Under the pieces are notes generated by a model that was not told the DNA's origin, did no database searches, and saw only the letters and a program-made list of their open reading frames with translations. Below are positions 33,254 through 63,736 of a stretch of DNA of 64,000 bases, piece by piece. How positions within the stretch are numbered: the first letter of the stretch is position 1; every line of letters starts with the position of its first letter. The stretch lies in NCBI GenBank assembly GCA_000092065.1, contig CP000596.1. One strand, given 5' to 3'. Both the position numbers and the translations under genes were made by a program. This DNA is from Ostreococcus lucimarinus (taxonomy: Eukaryota).

Positions 33254-36200
33254 TCAGATGACGGAGCTGTAGCCGTCGACTTGGCGTGACGTCGTCGCGA
33301 CGAGCGACGTACGTTCGGACATTTCGGCGTCGGCTGGACGCGCGCGCGCGCGGAACGCGAACGCGAACAGCGCGACGCACAGCGTGAACGCGAAGGGAGT
33401 GTAAAAAATTGCGACCTTTTGACTGCCGTCGATGTCATCTTGAGGGCTCGATGATGCGAGAGATGATTTTTGTCGTGGAGAAGATCCCGACGACCCTAGT
33501 TGTGGCGTTTCGGCGGTGCTCGCGCCGACGCGCACAGGTGCGACGAATTCAAACTCAGCCGCTGGGTTGCCTGCGACGTCGGTCACTTCCGTAACAGTCA
33601 CTTTGTGATAGCCTTGTGAAAAGTATGGAAACTTCATCAACCAGTGACCACCAGCGCCATCGTTAACGCATTGAAGGACGTACTGTCTCAAGTCTTCGTT
33701 GGAAACGGCTTCGAAGGGACCCGTCGACGAGTTGCCTCGCTTGGCCGTGATCACTTGCTTCGTGCAATCAATGTCTTCCATGAAATCGACGCGTTGCGTT
33801 ACCTGTGAGCTCACATATTTGAAATCACCGACGAGCGGGTCCTTCGTATCTATCTTCACCATGAGATTTTGATCGCTCACAAATTCGTGCACTGACGGCT
33901 TTGCGAGGTGAGATCCGCCCACGCACATTGTTTTCAATCGGATATCATATTTCCCATCTTTATATCCACTCAGAAGTTTGTTGTAAGGGTCGTTTAGATC
34001 CCAGTCAAAGATGCAACCGTCTCCACCCCGCGACTCCGGGCAAAGTAAATTGAAATTCTTATTCGTGCCGGCACCGCGCTCGGCGTCTTTCGCTGTGATC
34101 CATTCGCCTCCTGATACCGAACGATATTGCACGTAGACGTAGGCGAGATTCCCATTCGTCACCAACGCTTCGGACGTGGATGCAGTTTCCTTGGGCCAGA
34201 GAGAATATCTATTCGGATTTACGACCGAGATGCTCAAAACGCTCGAATCAGACGCTGCGCTCTTCTCAAAGTAACTTGCTTCCTTGCTGAGCGTAGACGA
34301 GTGAAAAGCAACTTGAGGGCAATCTTTACTCCACGACATGGCACCGAGTGTAACACTGCTCGAGATGATCGGGCGATACATGTATTCTTCAATCATCGAC
34401 TCACACAAGCTCACCAAGGAAATCCCCAGGTACGAGCTTTCATACACTCCGTCGCTTGGCTCCACGCTCAGAAGCACGCGACTCTCGCGCACAACGCTTT
34501 GCGAATCCATACGCTCTCCAGCCAATCTTCGTAGAGGTAGGACTTCACCGAATGACCACATTTGAATACCATTGATCGAGAACTTCATTCCCTGTAGGAG
34601 TGTTCCTTGTGCTGTAGTGGTTTGCGTGAGACGAGCGATTGCGTTTGCCAACAATCTCCCTGCTCTGACGCTCATTGACTGTTCGTATGACGCTACGATG
34701 TCTTCAATCCGCGCCTTCAGGTCTTGAATGTCATCAGACTCTGACGCAAAGCATTCGTGGCTATCCGCCATGGCGTATGCTGCATTCTTTACGAACGTTG
34801 CGTTGTCCTCGTTCAACTGTGCCGCGTTATGAGCAGCCGCGATGATTTTTCCAACGCAGTCGGCGACTCCATCTACCAAACGAAGGCCCATGTTGGCCAC
34901 TTCCTTGTAGGGCGACTCATTGCTGATGAGAAGTTGGATCAAAGCGTGCTCTCCTGGGTTCAGATTCGTGTTATGCGTCGACTCCTTACCTATGGTAACG
35001 CCAGCTTCTCGGAACATCGTCCATTTTTCTCCCGGACATTGACTTCTGCCGCCCATCGTGATGAACACTGGAGATCCGAAACGTTTGTCGGAACTGACCT
35101 GGAGCACAAACTTATCCCCAAAATCTGGGTCACCTAATGAGTACATCGTGCTCATGTGTTCATACTTTGCCCAGGCAAAGGCACGACTTTTTGAAACTGA
35201 CTTGCTCATATCCGTGGTAGCACCTACATGCCCCTTGACGATGGCGATTGAACCCGCGAAGGAGTATCCGTTTTCAGCTGAGCCGTCCAGGCTGAGCGTC
35301 CATGCGTAATCTTGACCGTCGACGTTTTCGTTGGAAGAAAATATGTACTCTGTCGAAGCACCACCGCCGCTAAACGATAGTAAAATTGCTTCATCAGCGG
35401 GTCCATTCGAATCTGTGGTGGAGTAGCCGCGGGGACCCATACGCCCTGTAAACGACGCATCGACTCGTTTCGTATCGTTCATGTAAATGGATGCATCCTC
35501 TCCGAGCGTAAGATCGCTAAGATCGCTCGATTGAAGTAGTTGTGACGACACGTCTAGAGCCTGCGTTTTGCATTTTTCTGTGATGCAGGATGAAACCGTG
35601 TTGTTCAGATCTTCACGAGTGGGGCTATTCATCCCCATTGTCGTGACGAGCTCATCCGCTTCTTGAAATTGCTCGAGGAACTTCGGCTTCATCCTTTCAC
35701 TCTTTCGTGACCAGAAAACCTTGCCGACGTCTGGGGTGGCGTCGTTATCGTCGTCGTCACCGCGGAACCCAAGGTTTCCACTCAACAAGTCTGAAAATAA
35801 AGTCCCGGGATTGCTAACGTAGCCACTGATGAGCTGGGACAATCGAGATTCATCCGTCTCATCCGAGAGAATGAAGTCGTTAAGTGTGTCTATAGTACCA
35901 TCCGCGTCGCCCAAGTCCCCTGGAACGCCATGTATGTATGGACTAACTCTGTCGATTCTCTTCCAAGCAAGCTTCAACTCGTCTATTGGGGTAGAAATCG
36001 GACCGCTCGCGTCACTTATGAACGATGTTTCCATTTTCTCGGCTTCCATACCGAACGCGGATTGTTCATCCATAAAAGGAACCATGATGCGCTCCATTGC
36101 GCCGTAGTTTTTACCGTACAACACGGGAGCGCCTTCCGCAGTCGGCTCCATAGGAACCTTGTACACTGTTGGCGAAGCCCACAAAAGTGTGCGTTGCCAC

Positions 36201-39200
36201 ACGTTAATTTTGTCAGCGATGTACTGTGGCCAATTAGGCGCTTCCATTTTAGAATCATCCCCGACGATGAGGCCGCTTTCCACGACGGAAAGCAAATACC
36301 GCAAGTTTGGAATCACTTTCGCTTCAATCGAGTGTACCGTGAATATGTAGGACGTGGGTTTCCTCGGCATCCATGTGATCGCCGTCGATATCCGCAAGCA
36401 CGGTTTATCGTCTTCCCTTAGCGCAAGATCGAGCGTATCGGCTAGCCTGTAGACAAGTTCAACGCCGCCACCTAGAATCGCATCGCCCTGTCGTCCCGGG
36501 ATGGCGACGTCGGTACTTGTCCGTATGACACGATTTATCGTAGCCGTGAGATCCCAACCGACGGCGGAACTCTGAGCGACCGAAAATTCTGGTCCAGACT
36601 CCTCATGGTATGCGTCAAAATCTATCTTAAAGAGAGGCATTCCGAGCTGGAATAAAACCTCCATGCCATACCCAGCGCCGAACCCAGGTTTCGCCTCCAC
36701 TTCGAGTTCTACGCCGCCACCGCCTTCGTGTGAACTCGACACAGACGCCGCTTGTTCGTCTGAAAGCTCCACGGACATGGTCACTTCCGTGCCCATAAGA
36801 AGTTCGGCGTAAGAGTTGCCACCGGGCGGATCATGTACCGTCATGTACACCAAACCTTCGAGTGGAACAGTTGCCCAATACACGTCATCGCTTTCTTCGC
36901 CGTAGATCCCTTCGCCTCGCGGTTTCGAGCCAAGAGAGATGAGCTCTCGTTTCAACGGAACTGTCACTGTCATCGAACCATCAAATCTACCCACAGTCAG
37001 TTCGACAGATCTGCGGTAATTTCCTGAGAGCTTAGGATCTCCCGCGACAATGAGTCGATCCGTCGTCTTCTCGCCCTCATCCGTGGGGAATAAAAGTTTG
37101 TCGCTCTCCGGATCGATCTCAACGTCAAAGTCGCACAATGGTCCTCCATTGCGATCGGTATGACATGGATTTTCGGCTATATCGGTGACGCTTTGTCTGA
37201 ACATGGCCACCGTCATCCCGCCGCTCTCGGCGCTAGGCAGTGTCAAGCATTCATCGAGTGAACCATTCTCCACATGCAGTTCAAGTACTTTGGCGCTCAC
37301 AAGTTTCGGCCCCAAAGCGTAGAGCCCTTCTCCACCGAAATCATCAAAAAATGGCGATATCCCAACAAAGTGGTTGTGTCTAATGCCACCAGCTTTCACG
37401 CCATCAACGTCCCAGCAGTAATCGCCATCGTCGGTGATTACAGAAAGATCTACGAACTCTGCGCACAAATAACCGTGGTACTTGTATCTCGCCGAATACC
37501 AAGTGTGCTCAGTGCGTAATGGTACAAGCCTTTCGATCGTTGTTGGATGCTGGCGGAAGTATGGAATGATGCCGTCTACTCCGACATGACACAACGCGTT
37601 CGGATATTTCTCCTCGCGCATCGCCGTGAAATTCGCTGTGGATGGGGCCTCTTCGATCACTACCGAGTAATCCATCGCGGCGAGTGGCCACCGTCTTCCA
37701 TTCGGAACTTCTTGATATGTTGGTATAACGTCTGAGTTTTCCTTGTCGCGGTCAGGTAGAGTCCAGCCGGATACTTGAGCCGAAGTGAAGATGGCTGGTG
37801 GGTGACAGCCATTGATGGGGGTAATTTTGAAAGTCGCCCCTGTGTAAAGCTTTTCACACTCACCTTGATAGACACCCAAATCGACGTTTGCCGTCGTCGT
37901 GTCTGAGAAGAAAATGTACTTTTTCGATGATACGGCGTGGAGAGTAACTGTGGTCGGTTTACCGTCGCAGCTCCAAATTCTCGTAGCTTCCACGATGGTG
38001 GTTCCCGAATAGCAGATTTCGTGACCGGGATATTCCGCGGTTATCGTGTAGGTTTTCCCGTTTGTGACTGCGAATTCGAACCAGCCAGTCTCGTCTGTAG
38101 TGAATTGTCGCGGCGCACCAGCCTCGCTTTCATCTTTGACATAAATGCTTGCCTCAAAAAGTCCACACTCGGACAACTCGGTCCATTCTATTGGGAACAT
38201 GACGGCACCCAAAATGACCACTGTCGTATCGTCCTGCATTTTCTGCTCTACCTGATGATTATGGGTCAGCTCCAGGTTGATGACATCAATATCAGCCGTA
38301 TCCGAAAATACGGTATCACTTTCATATAGGTCACCATCGTCATCCGAAGTTCCAGCTTGCTTGACGACGTCATTGTTGTTGAATACATGCACGATTTCTG
38401 GCAGCTGCTGCGTGCTCCACAGCGCGACATCCAATCCAGGACGAGTGACGCGCGCGAACAGCGTCTGCGGATCATCTTGAACCACGTCGTGCAGTAGTGC
38501 GGCATCTAAGTCAACGAAAATCTTATTCGAGCCGGGAGATGTAGCAAGTAACGGTGTTGCATACACGGAGGTCTCATCGCCGACGACAATGGCATCGAAC
38601 TCGGCGTCTTCGAGAGGGCGACAGTGATCGATTTTTGACACAACATCACCCCCACTCTCTGCGCTGAGCTCATCATACCACTCGTTCCATCCCTCGGAAG
38701 AGTACGGAACGTGGGCTGATGTCGATCTTCGAACGATGAAATTTTCGCACGCTTTGCCAAACACTTGGCTACGCGCATCCTGGTGAGACTCGTCGGCGAT
38801 CGCAGCGCTAACACTCTGCACGGTGAACAAATCGAAGTCGTATGTAATTTTCCGCGGAGGGAATACGAGCACTGGCTCGACAAACAATGTCCGTTGAGCC
38901 AGACGATGCGCCACACTGAGGAATTCTTGTGCGTTCAGAAGTCCATCACCGTCCATATCCAACGACGAATTCCAAAGTTCTTCTGAAATTATCGCGTACC
39001 CATTGCTTGGAAAACTCGCACCTTTCTCGATGATGGCGGTCAACTCTGACTTATCGATGCCCCCGCTTCCATCTGTGTCTGTCTCGTCAAAATCGTGCAT
39101 CGGTGGTGGAGGCGATGGCGGTGGTGGCGATGGCGGCGGCGGCGATGGCGGCGGCGGCGATGGCGGCGGCGGCGACGGCGGCGGTGGCGACGGTGGCGGC

Positions 39201-42200
39201 GGCGGCGATGGCGGCGGCGGCGACGGCGGCGGCGGTGACGGTGGCGGCGACGGCGGCGGCGGCGATGGCGGCGGTGGTGATGCGATGCGCTCGACCCAGT
39301 GAACGTTTGTGAGAGAACCGGCCTTGACAGAGATATCCGCATGCAGCGGGTACTCGGGAGTCTGTTGACTGGTGTAAAAGCGAATTTCATTCTTGAAGTA
39401 CTCCACGGCTCCGGCGTCGTTGATGACGATTTGCAGCGAGTCGGACGAAGAGTAAGTCCCAGCCATCGTATACTCACGCTTGCCTTTCTCGTACACCTTG
39501 ATCTGTTTGGTATGCGTACAAAAAATCGCAAAATCAAGACTTTGATAATTCGTCGAATCCGTCGTCGACTGAGAGTTCAAACCGATCATCCTGTTGTTGT
39601 ATCCTCCGGCACAGACTGCGGAGATGCCACGCACAGAGTCAGAACCATTTCGAATAGCGCGCTGACTCACCGCACCGGCGTCCCAAGCGCCAGTCACTGC
39701 AGCCGTGCGCGTGACTTGGCCGCTTTCTGTGGATTCGACGCCGACTTGCGATACCCACGCGACATGATCGTCCGCCACCGCCTTTCCTGGCGGCGGCGGC
39801 GGCGGTGACGGTGGCGGCGGCGACGGCGGCGGCGGTGACGGTGGCGGCGGCGACGGCGGCGGCGGCGGCGACGGCGGTGGTGACGCGATGCGCTCGACCC
39901 AGTGAACGTTTGTGAGAGAACCGGCCTTGACAGAGATATCCGCATGCAGCGGGTACTCGGGAGTCTGTTGACTGGTGTAAAAGCGAATTTTATTCTTGAA
40001 GTACTCCACGGCTCCGGCGTCGTTGATGACGATTTGCAGCGAGTCGGACGAAGAGTAAGTCCCAGCCATCGTATACTTACGCTTGCCTTTCTCGTACACC
40101 TTGATCCGTTTGGTATACGTACAAAAAATCGCAAAATCAAGACTTTGATAATTCGTCGAATCCGTCGTCGACTGAGAGTTCAAACCGATCATCCTGTTGT
40201 TGTATCCTCCGGCACAGACTGCGGAGATGCCACGCACAGAGTCAGAACCATTTCGAATAGCGCGCTGACTCACCGCACCGGCGTCCCAAGCGCCAGTCAC
40301 TGCAGCCGTGCGCGTGACTTGGCCACTTTCTGTGGATTCGACGCCGACTTGCGATACCCACGCGACGCTACCAAGTATCTCGCCCGCCACCGCCTTTCCT
40401 GGCGGCGGCGGCGGCGGCGACGGCGACGGCGGCGGCGGTGACGGTGGCGGCGACGGCGGCGGCGGCGATGGCGGTGGTGGTGACGCCATGCGCTCGACCC
40501 ATTTAACATCGCTGAAGGAACCACGCATAATAAAAGCAACATCCGCGTGCAGCGGGTACTCGGGAGTCTGTTGACTGGTGTAAAAGCGAATTTCATTCTT
40601 GAAGTACTCCACGGCTCCGGCGTCGTTGATGACGACTTGCAGTGTATCGCTGTCCGTATACGCCACTGCAGCACCCTTAATTTTTTTACCACCTTCGTAC
40701 ACTTCAACTGCATCGGAGTGAAAATTGCATCTGATGCTGAAGTCCATTCGACTGGACACGGTCTCTGCCGCGGACTGCCGATTCAAGCCGATGAACTTGA
40801 GGCCGGACTCAGACCCACAACGAGCCGAGATTCCGCGCACTGAGTCCGTCAGGCCGTGGATCGACCGACGACTCACCGCACCGGCTGCGGAAAAATAATT
40901 CCACCAATTTGGAGATCGCCGCCAAACTTTTCGATTCGACGCTTTGGCTCTGCGAAGCGTCACCCAGACCACGTTGCCAACCGCCGCTTTTTCAGGCGGC
41001 GGCGGCGGCGGTGGCGACGGCGGCGGTGGCGACGGCGGCGGTGGTATGTACTGCGCAATGTTCCCCAGGAGGCGGCGCCCCCAGCGCTGCCTACCCAAGA
41101 GTGACGTCGTGGTTTCAGGAGATGACGAATCATCTTCCTTTAAGACCAATAAGACTTTACTGGGTACGTTCAGCGGGTCTGTCACGTCCGACGTTTGCAA
41201 GATGGGCTGCGTCGTCTTTTCAAAAACTTCCACTTTGTACGCCCCGATGTCAACGTGAGTTTTGATTGGCGTCATACCCGTGGAGTCTGTGATATGAACA
41301 ACAAACGATCCTTCCGAATCAGTGACCGCGCTGAAAGGGCATCGCGTCTCACCACCCAATACTCTTATTTCAGTCAAATTGACGTCTCGAACCGCCACGA
41401 CTGATACAAACTGCCCGTGCATCGCCTGCACAGTGTCGCCCCCGCCCCCCCCGCATGTAAACGTCAAACAGTCTGCGAATTCATCACTGACATCAGACGG
41501 ATCGTGGTTACATGCATATCCATAATTAGTCGTGTCTTCGGGATCGATTTCATGCACGTGCACTTTCATCGGTAAACTAAGCGTCGGACTCGCCTGTTGC
41601 CGAAATTCAAATCCCGTTACTTCAACTTTGCTCGATTCCGCACCAAACGAAATCTCGGGGAAAGTTATGTATTGATCTTGAGATGATATGAGGGTGGCGT
41701 TGAAACGTCTCCACGATTCCTCATGTATGGTGAATGATTCCGTACTGGCGTCAGTGGCGGATGTTCCGCGCAAGTCGATTGACACCGCGCGTTCACCACC
41801 CAAAGACTTCGCCCAAAACGACACCACGACAGAATCTCCAGTCAGGGCGCGCAAAGACTCGCCAGGAACGTGCACCGTGACTGAAACGCCTGCGTCCACC
41901 GATTTTACAACGTCCTCGAAACCAGGTGGAGGCGCAGTTGGGCTCGCGGTTAAAGGACTGATGGCGCTTGTCTGAACAAGCTCGAGGCGTTCGGTGAGAG
42001 TATTAAGAGTGAAATGAGCTCCGGTGAAGTAGAACGTACTTTCCGACCAAGCTGATACAGTAAATCCGACGAAAGCGGCGTCCTCTAACGTGTGCTTAAG
42101 CCTTATTTTCCTCCATTTATTCGGTTCAGCTGTAATGACGAGCGCGTCACCAACGGTCTGACGGCCTGCTGCTGTAGTTTGTTGTTCATACCCTAAAATC

Positions 42201-45162
42201 TGGAAAGTCATAATCGCCTCCTTCCCGACGGCGCGTACCCAGCATTCCAACAACACTGTATCACCAGCTTCGGCGTCTAGTCGATCAGTATTTTTCGCCC
42301 AGAGTTTCTCGTCTGCTCGCACGAGTCGGATGACATCATTCTCGTAACGAGGTGGATCAACGATCACGTCTGGATCATCGCCTGTATCGCCAGAATACCC
42401 CAGTCGGTCGGTGAGAGAACCCTCGGCAAGTTGGCGTGCCTTGATCGATTGCGGCTGTAGACATACTTGAACACTGCCTATTGACATCCAAAGACCAAGA
42501 TCGACGCGCGCGTAGCCACCCGTCGATACGACGACAGATTCACCGGTAGGTATGTGATTCCCATCGGTGAGCGTGTACGCTTGTTCATTCAAAGGGTTTG
42601 AGTATGCGTGCTTGAAAAGTGCGACATTGCTGGAAGATGATTCGACGTCGTCGCTCGGCCGTAAAGTTATCGTCGAATTCTCATTTTCATCCGCGTCTGG
42701 AGGCCTGGACCCTCGGTAATTTGCGACCTCCCCATCTATTACGATCGGGTCGTGAAAATTAGCGCATATTCGGACGTCGGGTACTGGAACAGCGGAATCA
42801 CCGGCGTACACGTAACCACCTACCTCTCCGTGCCAGGGCGTGATGAATTTGAAAGGGACAGAGTTTATACTTCCACCGGATGATGTTTTCGTCACCACCT
42901 TATACTTCCAAATCTGTCCTGGGATTGCCGCCGCCTCTCTGTCGGCGAAAAGCAACGGCGCGTACGATCGATGACAGTACGTGAGGCCACTGTCAATCAT
43001 CACCACTGACTCATAAGGTGCATCCGTCAGAGAATCCTGCATGCTTTGACGAAGAATCTCGAACCCAACGTCATTCCAGGCGGTATCACGGAAGCTGAAA
43101 GTGACTCCTACTGGATCCAGTTTTCCGTTGACGTCAATAGTAGAACCATCGTAGTACAATCCACCTCCACATTCAAACTTTGAGTAAGTTTCCTCGCGAG
43201 CGTCCGAAATGACGCCACTTAAACACACAATTCTTCGAGCTTTTGGTGCGGATGATTGACGAAGCACGCAGCGCTTGTAATGTCCACATCTTACGGTATC
43301 AATGAACATCACTTCGCGTATCACTCCGGTATACACTCGAACGTCGTCGAATTCAAAATCCACCGCGCCAAGCAGTGTAACGTCCGTCATTGACTCGAGC
43401 GCGCTCAGCGGCCAAGTTTCATCGCGCGTGTAAGTCGTATCATCGATTACTGTGGCCTTTGCGTCACTCGTTGGATCTACGTACAATGTCATGAAATTCA
43501 CCGAGTTTACGGCGAACGCGATGAGGTGCCACTCCCCGTCGCACGCAAAATCAAGTTTCACATCCTTTGAGGATGTGAAAGCGCTCGGAGGATCCACAGA
43601 CTCCTTGACCTGATGAGATGCCCGCAGTTCGACCATGCCGTCGCTCGTACGTATCTTGAGGTATACGTGGAGTCTGTGATCGTGAAGTCCCAACTGTCCT
43701 TGAAACTGAGCGACCGTCATGAGTGATTCGTCGTTGGAGGATTTGGGTTGCGAGCAACGACTTGGATCGATGCGCACCCATGTGCTCATCGCGATGTCGT
43801 GCCCAAGCGTATCTTCTTTATCAAGAGAGTATGAATAATCGTTCGTCCCAGGATCATCCACTGCTTGAAGGCAGCGAAATCCGTTGCCCCCCGAACATCC
43901 CGATATTGTGCGAGCGGATTTCGGCTGCAATCTCATCGGGACGGAAGACTGTCCGTCGACGATTGGCGCGACCGAATCAAGCGATCCGTCGTGTAAAGGG
44001 TCTTCATCAAACGTAAATGCTGCCACGAGAGAAGCGTGTTCGTCGAGAAAGTCACTCGTTGCTGGGCGAATGTCCGTGAAGGAGATGGGAAGTTGAAGCG
44101 TCGTGCCGCCGACTTCATACTCTTCAAAGCGCACATCGACGACGTCGTCGACTGTACCGTCGGCAACGTTGATCTGATTGAAGAGTATACCATCCACGTA
44201 TGCGCAGACGTAATCGCCGTTCGTTGGCTTAGGACTGTACGACCATGCAGTGGTGAGCCCGTTGAGGCCACTCACACAGCGATTCTCCGTTTGCCAGTCG
44301 AGAGTCGGATAGGTGATGCTATCGATACTGAAACTGTTCGACGGAGCTCCGCTGCACTTGACGGGTCGAACGGGGATTTCCATCACGTCGACAATAGACA
44401 CTGCCAGATCTGTGTCGTGCGCGGCGCGAAATTGGTCATTCCAAACGTTGAGAATGTACCTCGAAACGCTTTGTTCCACCAACATGGCCTGAAGTTCATT
44501 CAGTCGCAGCAGTCCGTCGCTGGGATCGACGTCGTGCCTACGAAAGATGCTTTCCTTTGTCTTGTAAATTTCGCCATCATCGCACAGCACGTTGTTGAAT
44601 TGATCGTTACTCAGCAATATGTACCGGACCAGTTCTTCAAGCCCCGAATTCTGATTCGCGCTCGCTTGGCCGGCGGCGTTGAATCCGAGAGGCAGGTGCA
44701 AATCGCAACCCTTGATAACTTCGAAAGAGTGTTGACCAACGGTTTCCGAACCTGGAACGATGCCATCGACCGTAACAAAGTGACAGTTATAAGTTATGGT
44801 GTGAGATCCAACCGAGTGCGTCCCATCCAACTCTGTGAGCGCGAGCGCCTTCGGGAAAAAATCATTCCATTTGCGACACGGTAAGTTATCCGCGTAATCC
44901 GACTCGGAACACGACTGATCGTCTCGTTTCACGCGAACATCGCATCGGAGACCAAGCGCGTGATTGCTCACGCTCTCTTCATTCACATTCAGTAAACAAT
45001 CGCTCGCTTCAGCGCACGCGGGATGATGCACCGCGACTTGGAAATCGTACGAGTACGCCGCAACCCTCTCCGTGGTGGAACCAAATCTCACTTCAATCGC
45101 AGCACCGGCACCAGGCGGCGGCGGTGGACTCGGCGGCGGCGGGCTCGGCGGCGGGCTCGGCG

Positions 45163-45202
<40 letters not shown>

Positions 45203-45484
45203 CGGACTCGGCGGCGGCGGCGGGCTCGGCGGCGGCGAACAATTCGCTATACCCTCGCAATTCTCCGTTCGTGTTTGTCCCTCATACGCTCCACAACTTC
45301 GTCCACCGTTTCGCGGCTTGACGGTGATCGTGAACGTCTGCGAGTACGTCGCCGGTCCGCAAAAAGCCGTGCAACTCCCTTGCCAAAAGCCTACACAATC
45401 CGTTTTCGGCGGCGACGGCGACGACCCCCCGTGGACCCCTCGCAGCGACGACAGCGCGCTCGCGACGACCAACCCGCGCATCAT
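33254..45484 (-). CDS. giant single-exon cell-surface glycoprotein (about 4,076 aa from the MMRGLVV signal peptide); predicted type-I membrane protein with a hydroxyproline-rich/extensin-like multi-domain ectodomain
   Basis: Uninterrupted 12.3-kb ORF. MMRGLVVASALSSLRGVHG signal peptide; Cys-rich TSP1-like module (SCTAFCG...KPRNGGRSCGAYEGQTRTENC); many S(P)4 runs; two perfect EF-hand loops (DTDGSGGIDKSE, DMDGDGLLNAQE); three 201-aa repeat modules; C-terminal TM IFYTPFAFTLCVALFAFAF plus a 30-aa tail; GC about 48-52% versus 65-70% in flanking genes. Confidence 0.8.
39103..41040. repeat. 3 x 603-bp coding tandem array inside the giant gene (units begin near 39291, 39894, 40497) separated by GGC/GGT-rich Pro-linker DNA
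   Basis: Antisense ORFs at 39299 and 39902 translate identically over more than 150 aa (exact 603-nt offset); third unit at +1206 is more diverged; each unit encodes a 201-aa module ending ...AVEYFKNEIRFYTSQQTPEYPLHAD. Confidence 0.85.
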
Positions 45485-45569
45485 CGTTCGCGTCGCGTCC
45501 CATCGACGTCCGGCGCCATCGCGCGTCGTCGACCGCGACGGCGCGCGTCGTTCGCGAAGCTGACGCGGC

Positions 45570-45602
<33 letters not shown>

Positions 45603-46218
45603 GTCGTCCGTCCTCGCGCGCGGCCCTCGCGCGGGCGCCGCGTCGTCGCGCGTCGGGGGTTTCGGTTCGCTCCGCGTTCGTCGCGCTCGCGTCGCGCGAT
45701 GCCGTCGCGCGCGCGACGAACGCGCGCCGCGACGTTTGGGGGAGGTGTTGCGTCTTTTCAAAAAAAAACGAGGGTGTTACAAGGGTGTTACGAGGGTGTT
45801 GCGCGCGGGGCGTTACAAAATAAACGTCTAGGCTAGTTGGAGGACGCGAGGTCGAACGGATTGTTTTCTTCGGGATTCAATCGAATTCTTCGGAATTCTT
45901 GGAGATGCGAGCTCCGCAGCGGACCTCGCGCCCTACGCCTTCGCCCGATTTCGGCGAACGAACGAACGATCGCTCGCCTTCCGGCGGCGGCGCCGACAGC
46001 CCCTCGGGACTGGCGACCACCCACCTGGGAGGAGGGAAATCCCTGACCGCGATGCGCACCATCTCGAATGCGCGCACTCGGGATGATCCACGGACCCGCG
46101 CGCGCGCATCCGAACGATGCGGTAGGGAGTTTCTTTCGACCGACGCTTTTTTTTGTTTGACTTCCGTCGCCCCCGAAGGCGCGTCGACCGCTTCCATCGT
46201 AAAATTCGCGCGCGTCCG

Positions 46219-61522: not shown

Positions 61523-63736
61523 CTATTCGTCTCGCGCCCAGACGTCGCTGTAGACTCCGGGACGCGAGCTCTTCGGCGGATTGGCGCGACGACGAATGTA
61601 CGGCCCGCTCGATCTGAACCGACCGGTGCCGTCGTCGGGGAGCGCTAAAGCGACGTCACCGATGAGCGGGGTCGCAGCCTCGGTCCTGTCGGTGCGACGT
61701 CGATTGAATGAAATGGTTGAATCGTCGTCGTCGTTGACGCTGTACGAAAACGCCTTGACGGGCTTGTGCGTCGCCGTGCCGAATTCGTCGGCATGTGTGA
61801 TGTACAAGTCTTCATCGAACGCCAAAAGATCGACGTCTTCGTCTTCGTCGTCGCCGTCTATGATGCCGTAATCATCGACGTCCCGGTTGAACGCGCGACG
61901 AAGCGTGCACACGCTCGCCGCGACGAACGTGATCAACACGACGACGGAAAAAGACAGGAAACGCCAGACATCCGCGTTGACCTGCGCCGAGGCGCGCTTG
62001 TACACTCGAACGTAGTCGACGTAATGAAACATGTCATCGTCGCACTGATTGAGCGCCGCAGGCATGCCGAACGGCGACACCGCGGTGTTCAGGATGAGAT
62101 AAAACGGCCATCGCGGAATGATGGGCACATTAAAGCGCGTCAAGTGATGCACGGGATGACCGTCGACGGTGAACGTCAAGCTATCCTTCGACCACTCCAC
62201 CGCATACGTGTGGAAATCCGCGCTGAAATCGATCGCGGGGTCCATCATGGGCGGGTACGCGCTTCGCGAGAAGCCTTCGGCGCCGCACTCCGCCTTTGGG
62301 GCGAAATGATATCCCGATTCCACCGTTCCCGCACGCGTCCCGGGCCCGCCCAAACCTCTGCCGTACGACTGCATGATGTCAATTTGCCCGCCAAGCGGCC
62401 AGCACGCGCGCTTCGGCACGCTCTTCTCGGGGTCAGGTAACATCCAGTGCTGCGGCCAAACGCCCGGACACTTGGACTCGGGAATCTTCGCGCGAATCTC
62501 AACTCGCCCGTACGTTTGCGTGAACGCCTCTTTCGTGTCCACCCAGCACGACAGGAACGGATACTGATCACCGCGACCACGATGACCCACGGCACCTCCG
62601 TGTGGCGTCGCGGCAGTGCGCACGCCTCGCTGACGCCGCGTCCCGATGACGAGCGCGCCGTCGACGACTTTACACATCTCGGGAACGTAAAACTGTTGCT
62701 GTCCGCCGTGTCGCTCTAAACCTGGCGCGCTCTCGTTCACCTTCGGTCGCCATTTCGATAAATCTAACGCATCACCGTCGAACTCGTCGCTGAACGTCAA
62801 CTCCCATCCCGGCTGTCTCGCGTCCTTCGACGAGGCGCCCTTCGTCGACCCCGGCACGCTTTGCGGAAACCCACGTCGAGGGGTCGCGCCCGCGCGCCGC
62901 CGCGCCGCCGCGCGCTCTTTTATCGCCGCCGCGTTCGCTGGCGGTCGAGTCGGCATCGTTCTCGCCGCCGACGGCGCGTCTTCTTCCCCTCCCGTCGCGC
63001 CGTCGCCCGCGCCGGCGAGCGCGTCTCTCGCGCGACGCAGCGCCTCGTCTGGATCCTCCAACGCCCCCAGCGCCGCCTCATCGCGTTCTCTGCGCATTCG
63101 CGCCCGTCTAATTTTCATCATCTGTCGCTTCGTCGGCGCCCTCGCGCCCAACCGCGCCGTCGAACCGCCCGCGTCGTCTTCGTCCTCCTCCTCGTCCTCG
63201 TACGCCTCCTCGTCCTCGTCCTCGTCCGCCCCGTACATCTCGTCCGGATCGTCCGGCGCCTCGTCCTCGACGATCCTGCGCATCAACGCGTCGTCCATCG
63301 TCCCGAACCGCGTCCCCGCGCTCGCGTCGACGTACCCCGGCGCGTCGCCCGCGTCGTCCCGCGCGTTGGGTGTTGCGTCTCGCGTCGTCCCGTCCCCGCC
63401 CGCGCCTTCGCCCGTCGCGCGTCCCGATCGCGCCCTCGCGAGCGTCGCGAGCGTCACCGCGCACATCGCCGCCCGCGCGCGACGCGACGTCGCGCCGCGC
63501 GTCGCGCGCCGCGATCGGCGCCGCGTCGAATGCGCGGCGTCCATCGCCTCGCGCGCGTCGTCCCGCGTCGACGTCGTCGCCGTCGGTCGCCGCGCGCCGC
63601 CGCGCGCGTCGCCGCCGTCGCGCGTCACGCGCGCGACGTCGCCGTGTGTCGCGCGCCGCGCCGCGCGACCGACGACCGACGCCGCGCGCGGGATGTTGGC
63701 GCCGCGCATAAAACCAATCGCGCGATTCGTTCGCAT
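61523..63736 (-). CDS. glycoside hydrolase family 16 (laminarinase-like) domain protein with a C-terminal TM anchor; catalytic motif degenerate (QIDIMQ); true start uncertain (possibly 63466)
   Basis: WELTFSDEFDGDALDLSKW, PGVWPQHWMLPD, WPLGGQIDIMQSYGRG and FHTYAVEWSKDSLTFTVDG match GH16 laminarinase blocks; TM FLSFSVVVLITFVAASVCTL near the C-terminus; long low-complexity N-terminal extension. Confidence 0.55.
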   Translation of the reverse strand: MRTNRAIGFMRGANIPRAASVVGRAARRATHGDVARVTRDGGDARGGARRPTATTSTRDDAREAMDAAHSTRRRSRRATRGATSRRARAAMCAVTLATLARARSGRATGEGAGGDGTTRDATPNARDDAGDAPGYVDASAGTRFGTMDDALMRRIVEDEAPDDPDEMYGADEDEDEEAYEDEEEDEDDAGGSTARLGARAPTKRQMMKIRRARMRRERDEAALGALEDPDEALRRARDALAGAGDGATGGEEDAPSAARTMPTRPPANAAAIKERAAARRRAGATPRRGFPQSVPGSTKGASSKDARQPGWELTFSDEFDGDALDLSKWRPKVNESAPGLERHGGQQQFYVPEMCKVVDGALVIGTRRQRGVRTAATPHGGAVGHRGRGDQYPFLSCWVDTKEAFTQTYGRVEIRAKIPESKCPGVWPQHWMLPDPEKSVPKRACWPLGGQIDIMQSYGRGLGGPGTRAGTVESGYHFAPKAECGAEGFSRSAYPPMMDPAIDFSADFHTYAVEWSKDSLTFTVDGHPVHHLTRFNVPIIPRWPFYLILNTAVSPFGMPAALNQCDDDMFHYVDYVRVYKRASAQVNADVWRFLSFSVVVLITFVAASVCTLRRAFNRDVDDYGIIDGDDEDEDVDLLAFDEDLYITHADEFGTATHKPVKAFSYSVNDDDDSTISFNRRRTDRTEAATPLIGDVALALPDDGTGRFRSSGPYIRRRANPPKSSRPGVYSDVWARDE

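Follow-up and report, generated by a model that had tools for sequence, protein, structure and literature searches.

The sexual agglutinins of Chlamydomonas are reportedly hydroxyproline-rich glycoproteins (HRGPs) of more than 3,000 residues, which carry globular recognition domains on polyproline-II shafts and mediate cell-cell adhesion at a membrane surface. The apicomplexan adhesins TRAP and MIC2 combine a signal peptide, a thrombospondin type-1 (TSP1) module, a single transmembrane (TM) helix and a short cytosolic tail whose C-terminal motif is conserved. Ostreococcus, the smallest free-living eukaryote, is regarded as naked, having neither a wall nor scales. Here, we analyzed a stretch of 64,000 nucleotides from Ostreococcus lucimarinus (GenBank assembly GCA_000092065.1, contig CP000596.1; hereafter the window), which contains gene 25682, encoding a protein of 4,076 residues. 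Similar to the agglutinins, 25682 is a very large green-algal HRGP; however, no sequence similarity to them was detected, and where they have a long fibrous shaft, it combines a TM anchor and a large, conserved non-HRGP core with short spacers, five in number. With TRAP/MIC2 it shares the layout, but it lacks a vWA/I-domain, is approximately ten times larger, has only a sub-threshold TSP1 match and bears no sign of motility coupling or rhomboid cleavage. We regard both likenesses as analogies of design and not as homology.

The gene itself is no discovery. A motif-based extensin (EXT) census (Liu et al. 2016, PLoS One 11:e0150177; PMC4769139) lists gene 25682 as a "Long Chimeric EXT" of O. lucimarinus with 4,076 residues, SP3/SP4/SP5/YXY motif counts of 5/19/9/7, signal peptide "Yes" and glycosylphosphatidylinositol (GPI) anchor "No" (S1 Table), and prints its sequence, MMRGLVVASALSS... 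through ...RQVDGYSSVI (S1 Fig). The same census counts four long chimeric EXTs in the O. lucimarinus genome. The features that define this class (at least two SPPP repeats, more than 2,000 residues and an N-terminal signal peptide) are all found in 25682. Therefore, the view of the original prediction, made from the DNA letters, that the domain combination is not recognisable from a described family is not supported. However, the class rests on length and SPPP motifs alone and is silent on the remaining 96% of the chain, a non-HRGP portion that belongs to a conserved family of its own with bacterial relatives. Searches by gene, Ostreococcus adhesion, thrombospondin and giant protein found no mention of OSTLU_25682 beyond this census. 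As far as the searched literature and databases show, the family-level picture and a superfamily defined by two conserved blocks, b1 and b2, have not been described. We propose that 25682 is probably a type I cell-surface recognition or adhesion glycoprotein.

Gene and domain organization

The reading frame on the minus strand is uninterrupted over 33254..45571 (4,105 codons counted from the first ATG); starting at MMRGL, the second Met pair in frame (45484), the protein has 4,076 residues. At roughly 0.035 stops per random codon, the chance of an open frame this long is approximately e^-140, and the giant open reading frame (ORF) is a single-exon nuclear gene. Its features, ordered from the N-terminus of the protein, are listed below (aa, amino acid positions).

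33254..45484, minus strand: complete coding region of 4,076 aa with stop codon, in one exon; gene model 25682 of O. lucimarinus
45485..45571, minus strand: 29 in-frame upstream codons (MPRQLRERRAP...), Arg-rich; probable 5′ leader
45428..45484, minus strand: signal peptide, aa 1-19; predicted cleavage between VHG and GSSPSPP
45239..45403, minus strand: TSP1-like cap module with six Cys, aa 28-82; TSP1_spondin match below cut-off
45113..45238, minus strand: Ser-Pro linker 1, aa 83-124
42458..45112, minus strand: N-core part 1, aa 125-1009; conserved in paralogous lineages (33% identical to P0060), partly kept in Bathycoccus
41573..42457, minus strand: lineage-specific insert, aa 1010-1304; two ~140-aa beta-rich units
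41045..41572, minus strand: N-core part 2, aa 1305-1480; 32% identical to P0060 1540-1679
40994..41044, minus strand: Ser-Pro linker 2, aa 1481-1497
40484..40993, minus strand: predicted SPRY-like module M1, aa 1498-1667
40400..40483, minus strand: Ser-Pro linker 3, aa 1668-1695
39884..40399, minus strand: predicted SPRY-like module M2, aa 1696-1867; copy chosen for structure modelling
39788..39883, minus strand: Ser-Pro linker 4, aa 1868-1899
39281..39787, minus strand: predicted SPRY-like module M3, aa 1900-2068; near-copy of M2
39101..39280, minus strand: Ser-Pro linker 5, aa 2069-2128; at 60 aa the longest
38885..39100, minus strand: extracellular EF-hand pair, aa 2129-2200
33515..38884, minus strand: C-core, aa 2201-3990; 28-59% identity across at least eight Mamiellales lineages
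38018..38155, minus strand: CarboxypepD_reg-like (transthyretin-like) beta-sandwich within the C-core, aa 2444-2489; Pfam E 1.6e-4, below cut-off
36110..36952, minus strand: conserved block b1, aa 2845-3125; VHDPPGGxSYA ... S/T-rich long strands ... PGRxGDxILGGG ... WLPRKPT
34865..35482, minus strand: conserved block b2, aa 3335-3540; FSGGG ... LGDxxxGDKFV ... DKRFGTPVF.T.GGRS.CPGE
33353..33415, minus strand: transmembrane helix, aa 4024-4044; 19-residue window hydropathy (Kyte-Doolittle, KD) 2.1
33257..33352, minus strand: cytosolic tail, aa 4045-4076 (RARARP...DGYSSVI), 32 aa, basic

The signal peptide and the TM helix were called from hydropathy and a rule-based reading of the sequence. The N-terminus, MMRGLVVASALSSLRGVHG, is signal-peptide-like, with n, h and c regions; its h-region, GLVVASALSSL, has a mean KD hydropathy of 1.9, and V-H-G stands at -3/-1. 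At the matching site, paralogue 31292 of the same genome reads ...GVARG followed by GSSPSPSP. The published census is independent support for the signal peptide and for a start at MMRGL. Because both the published model and 31292 begin at the signal peptide, we read 45485..45571 as a 5′ leader, which is more likely than coding sequence. However, the 29 upstream codons are identical in the haplotype of metagenome contig L003, which leaves the leader reading, and with it the start at MMRGL, probable rather than proven.

The cap shows the landmarks FWQGSCTAFCG...NGGRSCG...C...C, that is, a six-Cys framework with W...C..CG and GG..C present. The L003 haplotype keeps the W, CxxCG, GGRSC and all six Cys despite many substitutions and an indel, and 31292 has a similar six-Cys cap in which W, C.C and G(R)RC are kept. 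However, the best Pfam match of the isolated segment, TSP1_spondin (E 3e-4), scored 21.4 bits, well short of the cut-off of 41. The resemblance to a thrombospondin repeat, which the original prediction had pointed out, is thus fairly described as TSP1-like, whereas membership of the TSP1 family is not demonstrated.

Extensin-type SP3-5 linkers are present, as expected, but in five blocks rather than the "at least six" S(P)4/S(P)5 runs first reported. They contain 33 SP3-5 units by the published count (PMC4769139) and together make up 179 of the 4,076 residues (~4% of the chain). The RRA and XEG113 clades of glycosyltransferase family 77 (GT77), putative extensin arabinosyltransferases, occur in all analysed algae, including Ostreococcus (PMC3797821). 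Within N-core part 1, a LamG-like stretch covers ~aa 560-735, with a weak Laminin_G_2 match at ~aa 605-680 (16.8 bits, E 0.01). The insert at aa 1010-1304 is absent from the relatives P0060 and P0043 and has no Pfam match.

Tandem modules and EF-hand pair

The three tandem modules had been taken for 201-aa units of unknown fold. Their number stands; the domains themselves measure 169-172 aa and are joined by linkers of 28-32 aa, which gives a period of 198-204 aa, and by structure prediction they adopt a SPRY-like bent beta-sandwich fold. Between M2 and M3, identity reaches 94% at the protein level and 96% at the DNA level, and M1 is ~48% identical to either. Because of the 96% nucleotide identity, we regard M3 as a recent tandem duplicate with M2. 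The Pfam SPRY model matched neither M1 nor M2 even at E up to 10, and the modules share only 10-13% sequence identity with SPRY/B30.2 domains (SPRYD3, TRIM PRYSPRY and RanBP9/10). Classical SPRY domains are mostly intracellular, whereas the M modules would be extracellular, tandem and separated by HRGP linkers. Homologues detectable by sequence were found only in Ostreococcus-like metagenome fragments. One protein, P0249 (245 aa, on a 332-kb ENA contig), fuses a Kringle domain (PF00051) to a partial SPRY-like module ~50% identical to M2; therefore, the module is apparently mobile between proteins of related algae.

The proposed EF-hand pair was borne out. Both loops, DTDGSGGIDKSE (aa 2136-2147) and DMDGDGLLNAQE (aa 2176-2187), are canonical 12-residue loops. 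The Pfam scores lie just under the cut-offs when the whole protein is scanned, and the isolated 80-aa segment passes the gathering scores (EF-hand_1, 36.2 bits with a cut-off of 25.4; EF-hand_5, 35.4; EF-hand_6, 30.6). The Ca-ligand positions are conserved in 9-10 homologues, and loop 2 reads D-x-D-x-D-G-x-L-x-x-x-E-F in all ten homologues that cover the site.

Membrane-proximal core, anchor and tail

In scans of the whole protein and of pieces, ~75% of the chain matched no Pfam, NCBIfam or PDB sequence family. Beyond the EF-hand, domain searches, which also covered full-length relatives and a C-core profile, gave only weak matches to CarboxypepD_reg, TSP1, LamG and, near the membrane, Big_13. 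The low-confidence AlphaFold model of the C-core was used only as a secondary-structure hint. Foldseek searches with it returned no match at E<=0.001, and the CarboxypepD_reg-like part was its sole region giving local fold matches.

A single C-terminal TM helix with a short basic tail had also been anticipated, and it is found at aa 4024-4044, followed by RARAR; the next most hydrophobic segment in the whole protein has a KD of only 1.27. Together with the published calls of a signal peptide and no GPI anchor, the single C-terminal helix and its basic flank support the proposed secreted type I topology. Helix and tail are conserved in ~20 eukaryotic homologues, with the TM helix at the corresponding position. 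Nearly all eukaryotic members (P0032-P0098) have a tail of 35-50 aa that terminates in Y-G-[AST]-[ASTV]-[VIL]-COOH. The end of 25682, YSSVI (last five codons, 33257-33271), fits the slightly wider form Y-[GS]-[AST]-x-[VIL]-COOH. This terminal motif is probably a trafficking or docking signal.

A Mamiellales family with exchanged modules

Separate homologue searches were run with one module and with the N- and C-parts of the protein. Its last 1,948 aa (from MHDFDE...) retrieved homologues 35-97% identical, which fall into eleven 90% clusters from at least eight lineages, and the N-part retrieved far fewer homologues between species than the C-part. The full-length relatives P0060 (4,131 aa) and P0071 (4,139 aa), from paralogous lineages in which the TSP1-like cap and the SPRY-like modules are replaced, begin with a signal peptide, a beta-trefoil-like repeat array, a P-rich linker and the N-core; then follow two copies of another ~200-aa module, an SP linker, the EF pair, the C-core, the TM helix and the tail. 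The array of P0060 was recognized from one sub-threshold RicinB_lectin_2 match and a repeat pattern read in the sequence. In Bathycoccus prasinos (CAL6314626.1, P0043; 2,310 aa), a different Cys-rich cap and an SP linker precede an N-core that is joined straight to the C-core, and the EF pair is missing. To the extent that its published sequence was read, paralogue 31292 of O. lucimarinus (4,003 aa) shares the signal peptide, the Cys-rich cap, the SP linker and the start of the N-core. Judged from these alignments, the family follows a rule by which the cores and the anchor are constant and the cap and inserts are variable. A receptor for recognition or adhesion at the surface would be expected to combine constant cores with a swapped cap and inserts in this way.

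Homologues of ~1,900 aa raised the possibility that the C-half is a separate gene, which was rejected, as the contigs concerned start inside PPPS-coding DNA. We regard these homologues as assembly truncations because metagenome contigs break in the SP-linker repeat; homologous contigs break exactly at linker 5 (L001 1-79, L002 1-110). Gene callers then report false "full-length" proteins of ~1,900 aa from a post-linker Met, a systematic database artefact for this family.

Sequence variation at the locus

We compared the window with two metagenome contigs. The flanks of L003 (~4 kb on each side) are 99.4-100% identical to the window, except for three 500-bp intervals with 97-98% identity. Within the gene, the 3′ third is 98.6-100% identical. 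The 5′ two thirds (38100-45570) are 88-97% identical, falling to 64-86% around M1. By the Nei-Gojobori method, synonymous divergence (dS) is 0.12 and nonsynonymous divergence (dN) 0.05 over aa 125-1480 (dN/dS 0.41), and dS is <= 0.013 over aa 2851-4076. L003 contains three frame changes. Judged from such contigs, the gene appears to have a polymorphism hot spot in its distal two thirds.

The flanks of the second contig, L004, are 82-98% identical to the window; its 5′ haplotype is that of L003, and its middle haplotype is that of the window. This mosaic could result from true recombination or introgression among old haplotypes, or from chimeric assembly at the SP and module repeats. It fits a surface molecule under balancing pressure.

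Conserved blocks b1 and b2 and their bacterial relatives

An exhaustive search with a eukaryote-only profile of aa 2405-3560 (profile A1) retrieved 1,631 proteins at E<=1e-3, of which 818 reach E<=1e-10, with the similarity concentrated in b1 and b2. The motifs HDPPG..S, G..GD...GG and FGTP.F.T.GG.S.CP.E are common to this superfamily, with HDPPG..S and GG.S.CP.E showing almost no variation. Neither b1 nor b2 is covered by a Pfam or NCBIfam model. A protein of Pelagophyceae sp. CCMP2097 is a eukaryotic member from outside the Mamiellales. The Bacteroidota members include giants of Pseudopedobacter saltans (WP_013631137.1, 3,326 aa) and a Cytophagaceae bacterium (WMJ75529.1, 3,773 aa), both of which match the family profile at E 1e-22 to 1e-30 over b1/b2.

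The Bacteroidota giants bear DUF11, CarboxypepD_reg and type IX secretion system (T9SS) sorting domains; among 41 long bacterial-type members, Por_Secre_tail was found in 35 and CHU_C in 12. Similar to what we propose for 25682, they are surface-displayed modular proteins of several thousand residues with CarboxypepD_reg-like domains. However, they are anchored through the T9SS C-terminal sorting domain, whereas 25682 has a TM helix and a tail. Additionally, b1 and b2 are contiguous in bacteria (~400 aa), whereas the Mamiellales proteins carry a predicted-helical insert of 150-400 aa between them. SPPP linkers are absent from the Bacteroidota proteins examined, and no EF-hand, TSP1-like or SPRY-like matches were obtained among those scanned. 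LamG domains occur in other, unassigned long members of the superfamily.

A viral origin was considered and dropped, as a pattern scan of IMG/VR found no relative. Several known signatures were compared by eye with the conserved motifs and rejected: GGRS.CPGE does not fit the thioester signature GCGEQ, LGDPD does not suit GDPH-type autocleavage because GDPH is not invariant, and G..GD..GG differs from MACPF in its Y/W-G-T-H...GG spacing.

Genomic context

The gene lies in a compact, eukaryotic context. Neighbouring ORFs encode eukaryotic housekeeping proteins (ELP1, GPR180-like, Ufd2/E4B, DnaJ, an NVL-type AAA ATPase, SNF2 and a GH16/SKN1-like protein), and a tRNA scan found no tRNA genes in the window. 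The sequences of two neighbouring proteins recur without any difference in clusters that include proteins of O. lucimarinus CCE9901. GC content at third codon positions (GC3) is 0.57 for the giant gene overall, ranging from 0.47 to 0.68 along its length, compared with 0.71-0.78 in nine of ten neighbouring genes and 0.62 in the tenth. Overall GC is 0.51-0.56 within the gene versus 0.60-0.70 for the surrounding region. Low expression, relaxed biased gene conversion and foreign origin are possible explanations of the low GC3.

Directly upstream of the first ATG stands the repeat (CGGCGT)x7 (45566-45608; in-frame reading TPTPTPTP), and the 11-mer AGGGTGTTACA occurs in 2.7 copies in the 5′ intergenic region (45771-45800). 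A 737-aa ORF at 61523-63736 on the minus strand matches Glyco_hydro_16 at 40.9 bits (Pfam cut-off 22) and SKN1/KRE6, a beta-glucan synthesis-associated family, at 28.3 bits, just under the cut-off of 30; such an ORF is curious in an alga considered wall-less.

Discussion

Overall, we consider it probable that 25682 is a type I cell-surface recognition or adhesion glycoprotein with an ectodomain of ~4,000 residues. From its anatomy, its homology relationships, its EF-hand conservation and the predicted SPRY-like fold, we infer its localisation, its glycosylation and its role in binding or adhesion, and we provide a putative mechanism. The signal peptide would send the chain into the endoplasmic reticulum, and the five Ser-Pro(3-5) blocks would likely be hydroxylated and O-arabinosylated, giving stiff polyproline-II spacers. 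These spacers would extend the beta-sandwich binding modules (the TSP1-like cap, the LamG-like region and the three SPRY-like modules) above the wall-less surface. The EF-hand pair, just past the last spacer, would be Ca-loaded in sea water and would probably fix the junction to the C-core. The TM helix and the 32-aa basic tail would anchor the protein, with Y-x-x-x-[VIL] presumably governing trafficking or cytoskeletal coupling. The variable distal end could then meet varying partners, such as cells, particles, bacteria, viruses or gametes.

We favor a surface recognition role because the bacterial relatives of the C-core are surface-displayed T9SS cargo and because variability is far greater at the distal end than near the membrane, across haplotypes as well as across species. 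Several observations weigh against it. The signal peptide is only moderately hydrophobic, and an in-frame ATG lies upstream of it. The TSP1 and LamG assignments fall under curated thresholds, and dN/dS of the variable part is ~0.4 and not above 1. Modelling of the C-core with AlphaFold (aa 2405-3560, ten aligned sequences) gave a mean predicted local distance difference test (pLDDT) score of 39, too low for use. Moreover, approximately three quarters of the ectodomain, including the best-conserved blocks b1 and b2, matches no known fold, and what the family has conserved could be an activity different from binding.

One such activity would be pore formation. On this account, b1/b2 would be surface-presented aerolysin-type beta-pore-forming modules, with lectin-like distal domains choosing the target; rather than simply adhering, the protein would attack bacteria, grazers or competitors on contact, defend the cell against them or bring about membrane fusion. 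We consider this account unlikely. Profile-to-PDB searches (177,635 sequences) gave four matches only, all to aerolysin-family pore-formers: the Cry78Aa pore-forming domain (7y79) and the hemolytic lectin LSL (1w3a) with profile A3, both at E ~0.09, and monalysin (4mjt, E 0.2) and LSL (E 0.57) with profile A4. However, each of these matches is statistically insignificant alone, and the eukaryote-only profile A1 found nothing in the PDB. The Pfam model CEL_III_C, a hemolytic-lectin pore-forming domain, matched three of 22 bacterial b1+b2 domains (best E 2.6e-4). An alignment of 40 bacterial b1+b2 sequences contains two stretches of ~30-40 columns with near-regular hydrophobic/polar alternation and S/T-rich flanks; its S+T content is 21%, against 20.5% reported for Cry78Aa. 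The authors of the Cry78Aa paper named amphipathic alternation and S/T-rich tracts as hallmarks of aerolysin-type toxins. Such stretches are nevertheless not specific to pore-formers, and the matches sit in compositionally biased, alternating S/T-rich segments, where the pattern alone can match. Pairs of strands of 32-35 residues, with the amphipathic stretch as the connecting loop, appear in the low-confidence AlphaFold2 model, but that model is not confident, and Foldseek gave no significant match with it. LSL, CEL-III and Cry78Aa pair a beta-trefoil lectin with a pore module, and P0060 has its beta-trefoil-like N-terminal array (weak, sub-threshold). The putative likeness of b1/b2 to aerolysin-type toxins lies in S/T-rich long strands beside amphipathic stretches and in the lectin-plus-pore logic. 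In contrast to the giant anchored b1/b2 proteins, the known toxins are small (200-450 aa), soluble and ring-oligomerising, and a module within a TM-anchored chain of 4,000 aa would have to be released or to work in an unusual geometry; the chain showed no identifiable processing site. Therefore, we treat the aerolysin-like similarity as a lead and not as a finding. It is doubtful, too, that b1/b2 constitute an undescribed, widespread, divergent aerolysin-type pore-forming unit of ~400 aa, borne on giant cell-anchored proteins and targeted by lectins. Were they to do so, Bacteroidota would display the unit by means of T9SS, and marine picoalgae (Mamiellales and at least one pelagophyte) would display it on a TM helix, as a contact-dependent weapon, defence or fusogen common to marine bacteria and algae, perhaps shared via horizontal transfer, with the hypervariable distal half as the targeting end.

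The protein might instead be structural, a scaffold of a thin Hyp-rich matrix on the "naked" alga whose domains serve self-assembly. It is classed with extensin-type HRGPs for its 33 SP3-5 units and seven YXY motifs (PMC4769139), four long chimeric EXTs occur in a small genome, and the prasinophytes analysed by another study are "considered wall-less", with closer study urged by its authors (PMC3797821). However, the SP blocks amount to ~4% of the chain, no extensin-like repetitive body is present, and the anchoring, the conserved tail motif, the swapped distal modules and the distal polymorphism better fit a receptor; we consider a purely structural glycocalyx role improbable. A location inside the cell is more improbable still. 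In that case, the lumen of the Golgi, the vacuole or another endomembrane compartment would contain the large domain, the protein would act as a cargo or sorting receptor, and the C-terminal Y-x-x-x-[VIL] would be a retention or retrieval signal. Nothing specifically indicates retention, and the HRGP-spaced ectodomain of 4,000 aa, the distal allelic diversity and the homology to bacterial surface cargo all point outward. A surface recognition or adhesion receptor remains the reading that we prefer.

For O. lucimarinus, an entry in a motif list now has a domain map, a conserved family with swapped modules and a possible allelic hot spot. The importance would be high only if the pore-forming role or balanced polymorphism is borne out. 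If the aerolysin-like hint is true, the b1/b2 proteins would be tethered pore-formers of a new class; if not, b1/b2 would still be among the larger "dark" extracellular domain families of marine microbes. In either case, the superfamily links the surface giants of algae and Bacteroidota. A compact genome gives 12 kb to this gene and the same again to at least one further paralogue, and the members of the family are obvious candidates for surface contact with bacteria, particles, prasinoviruses or mating partners.

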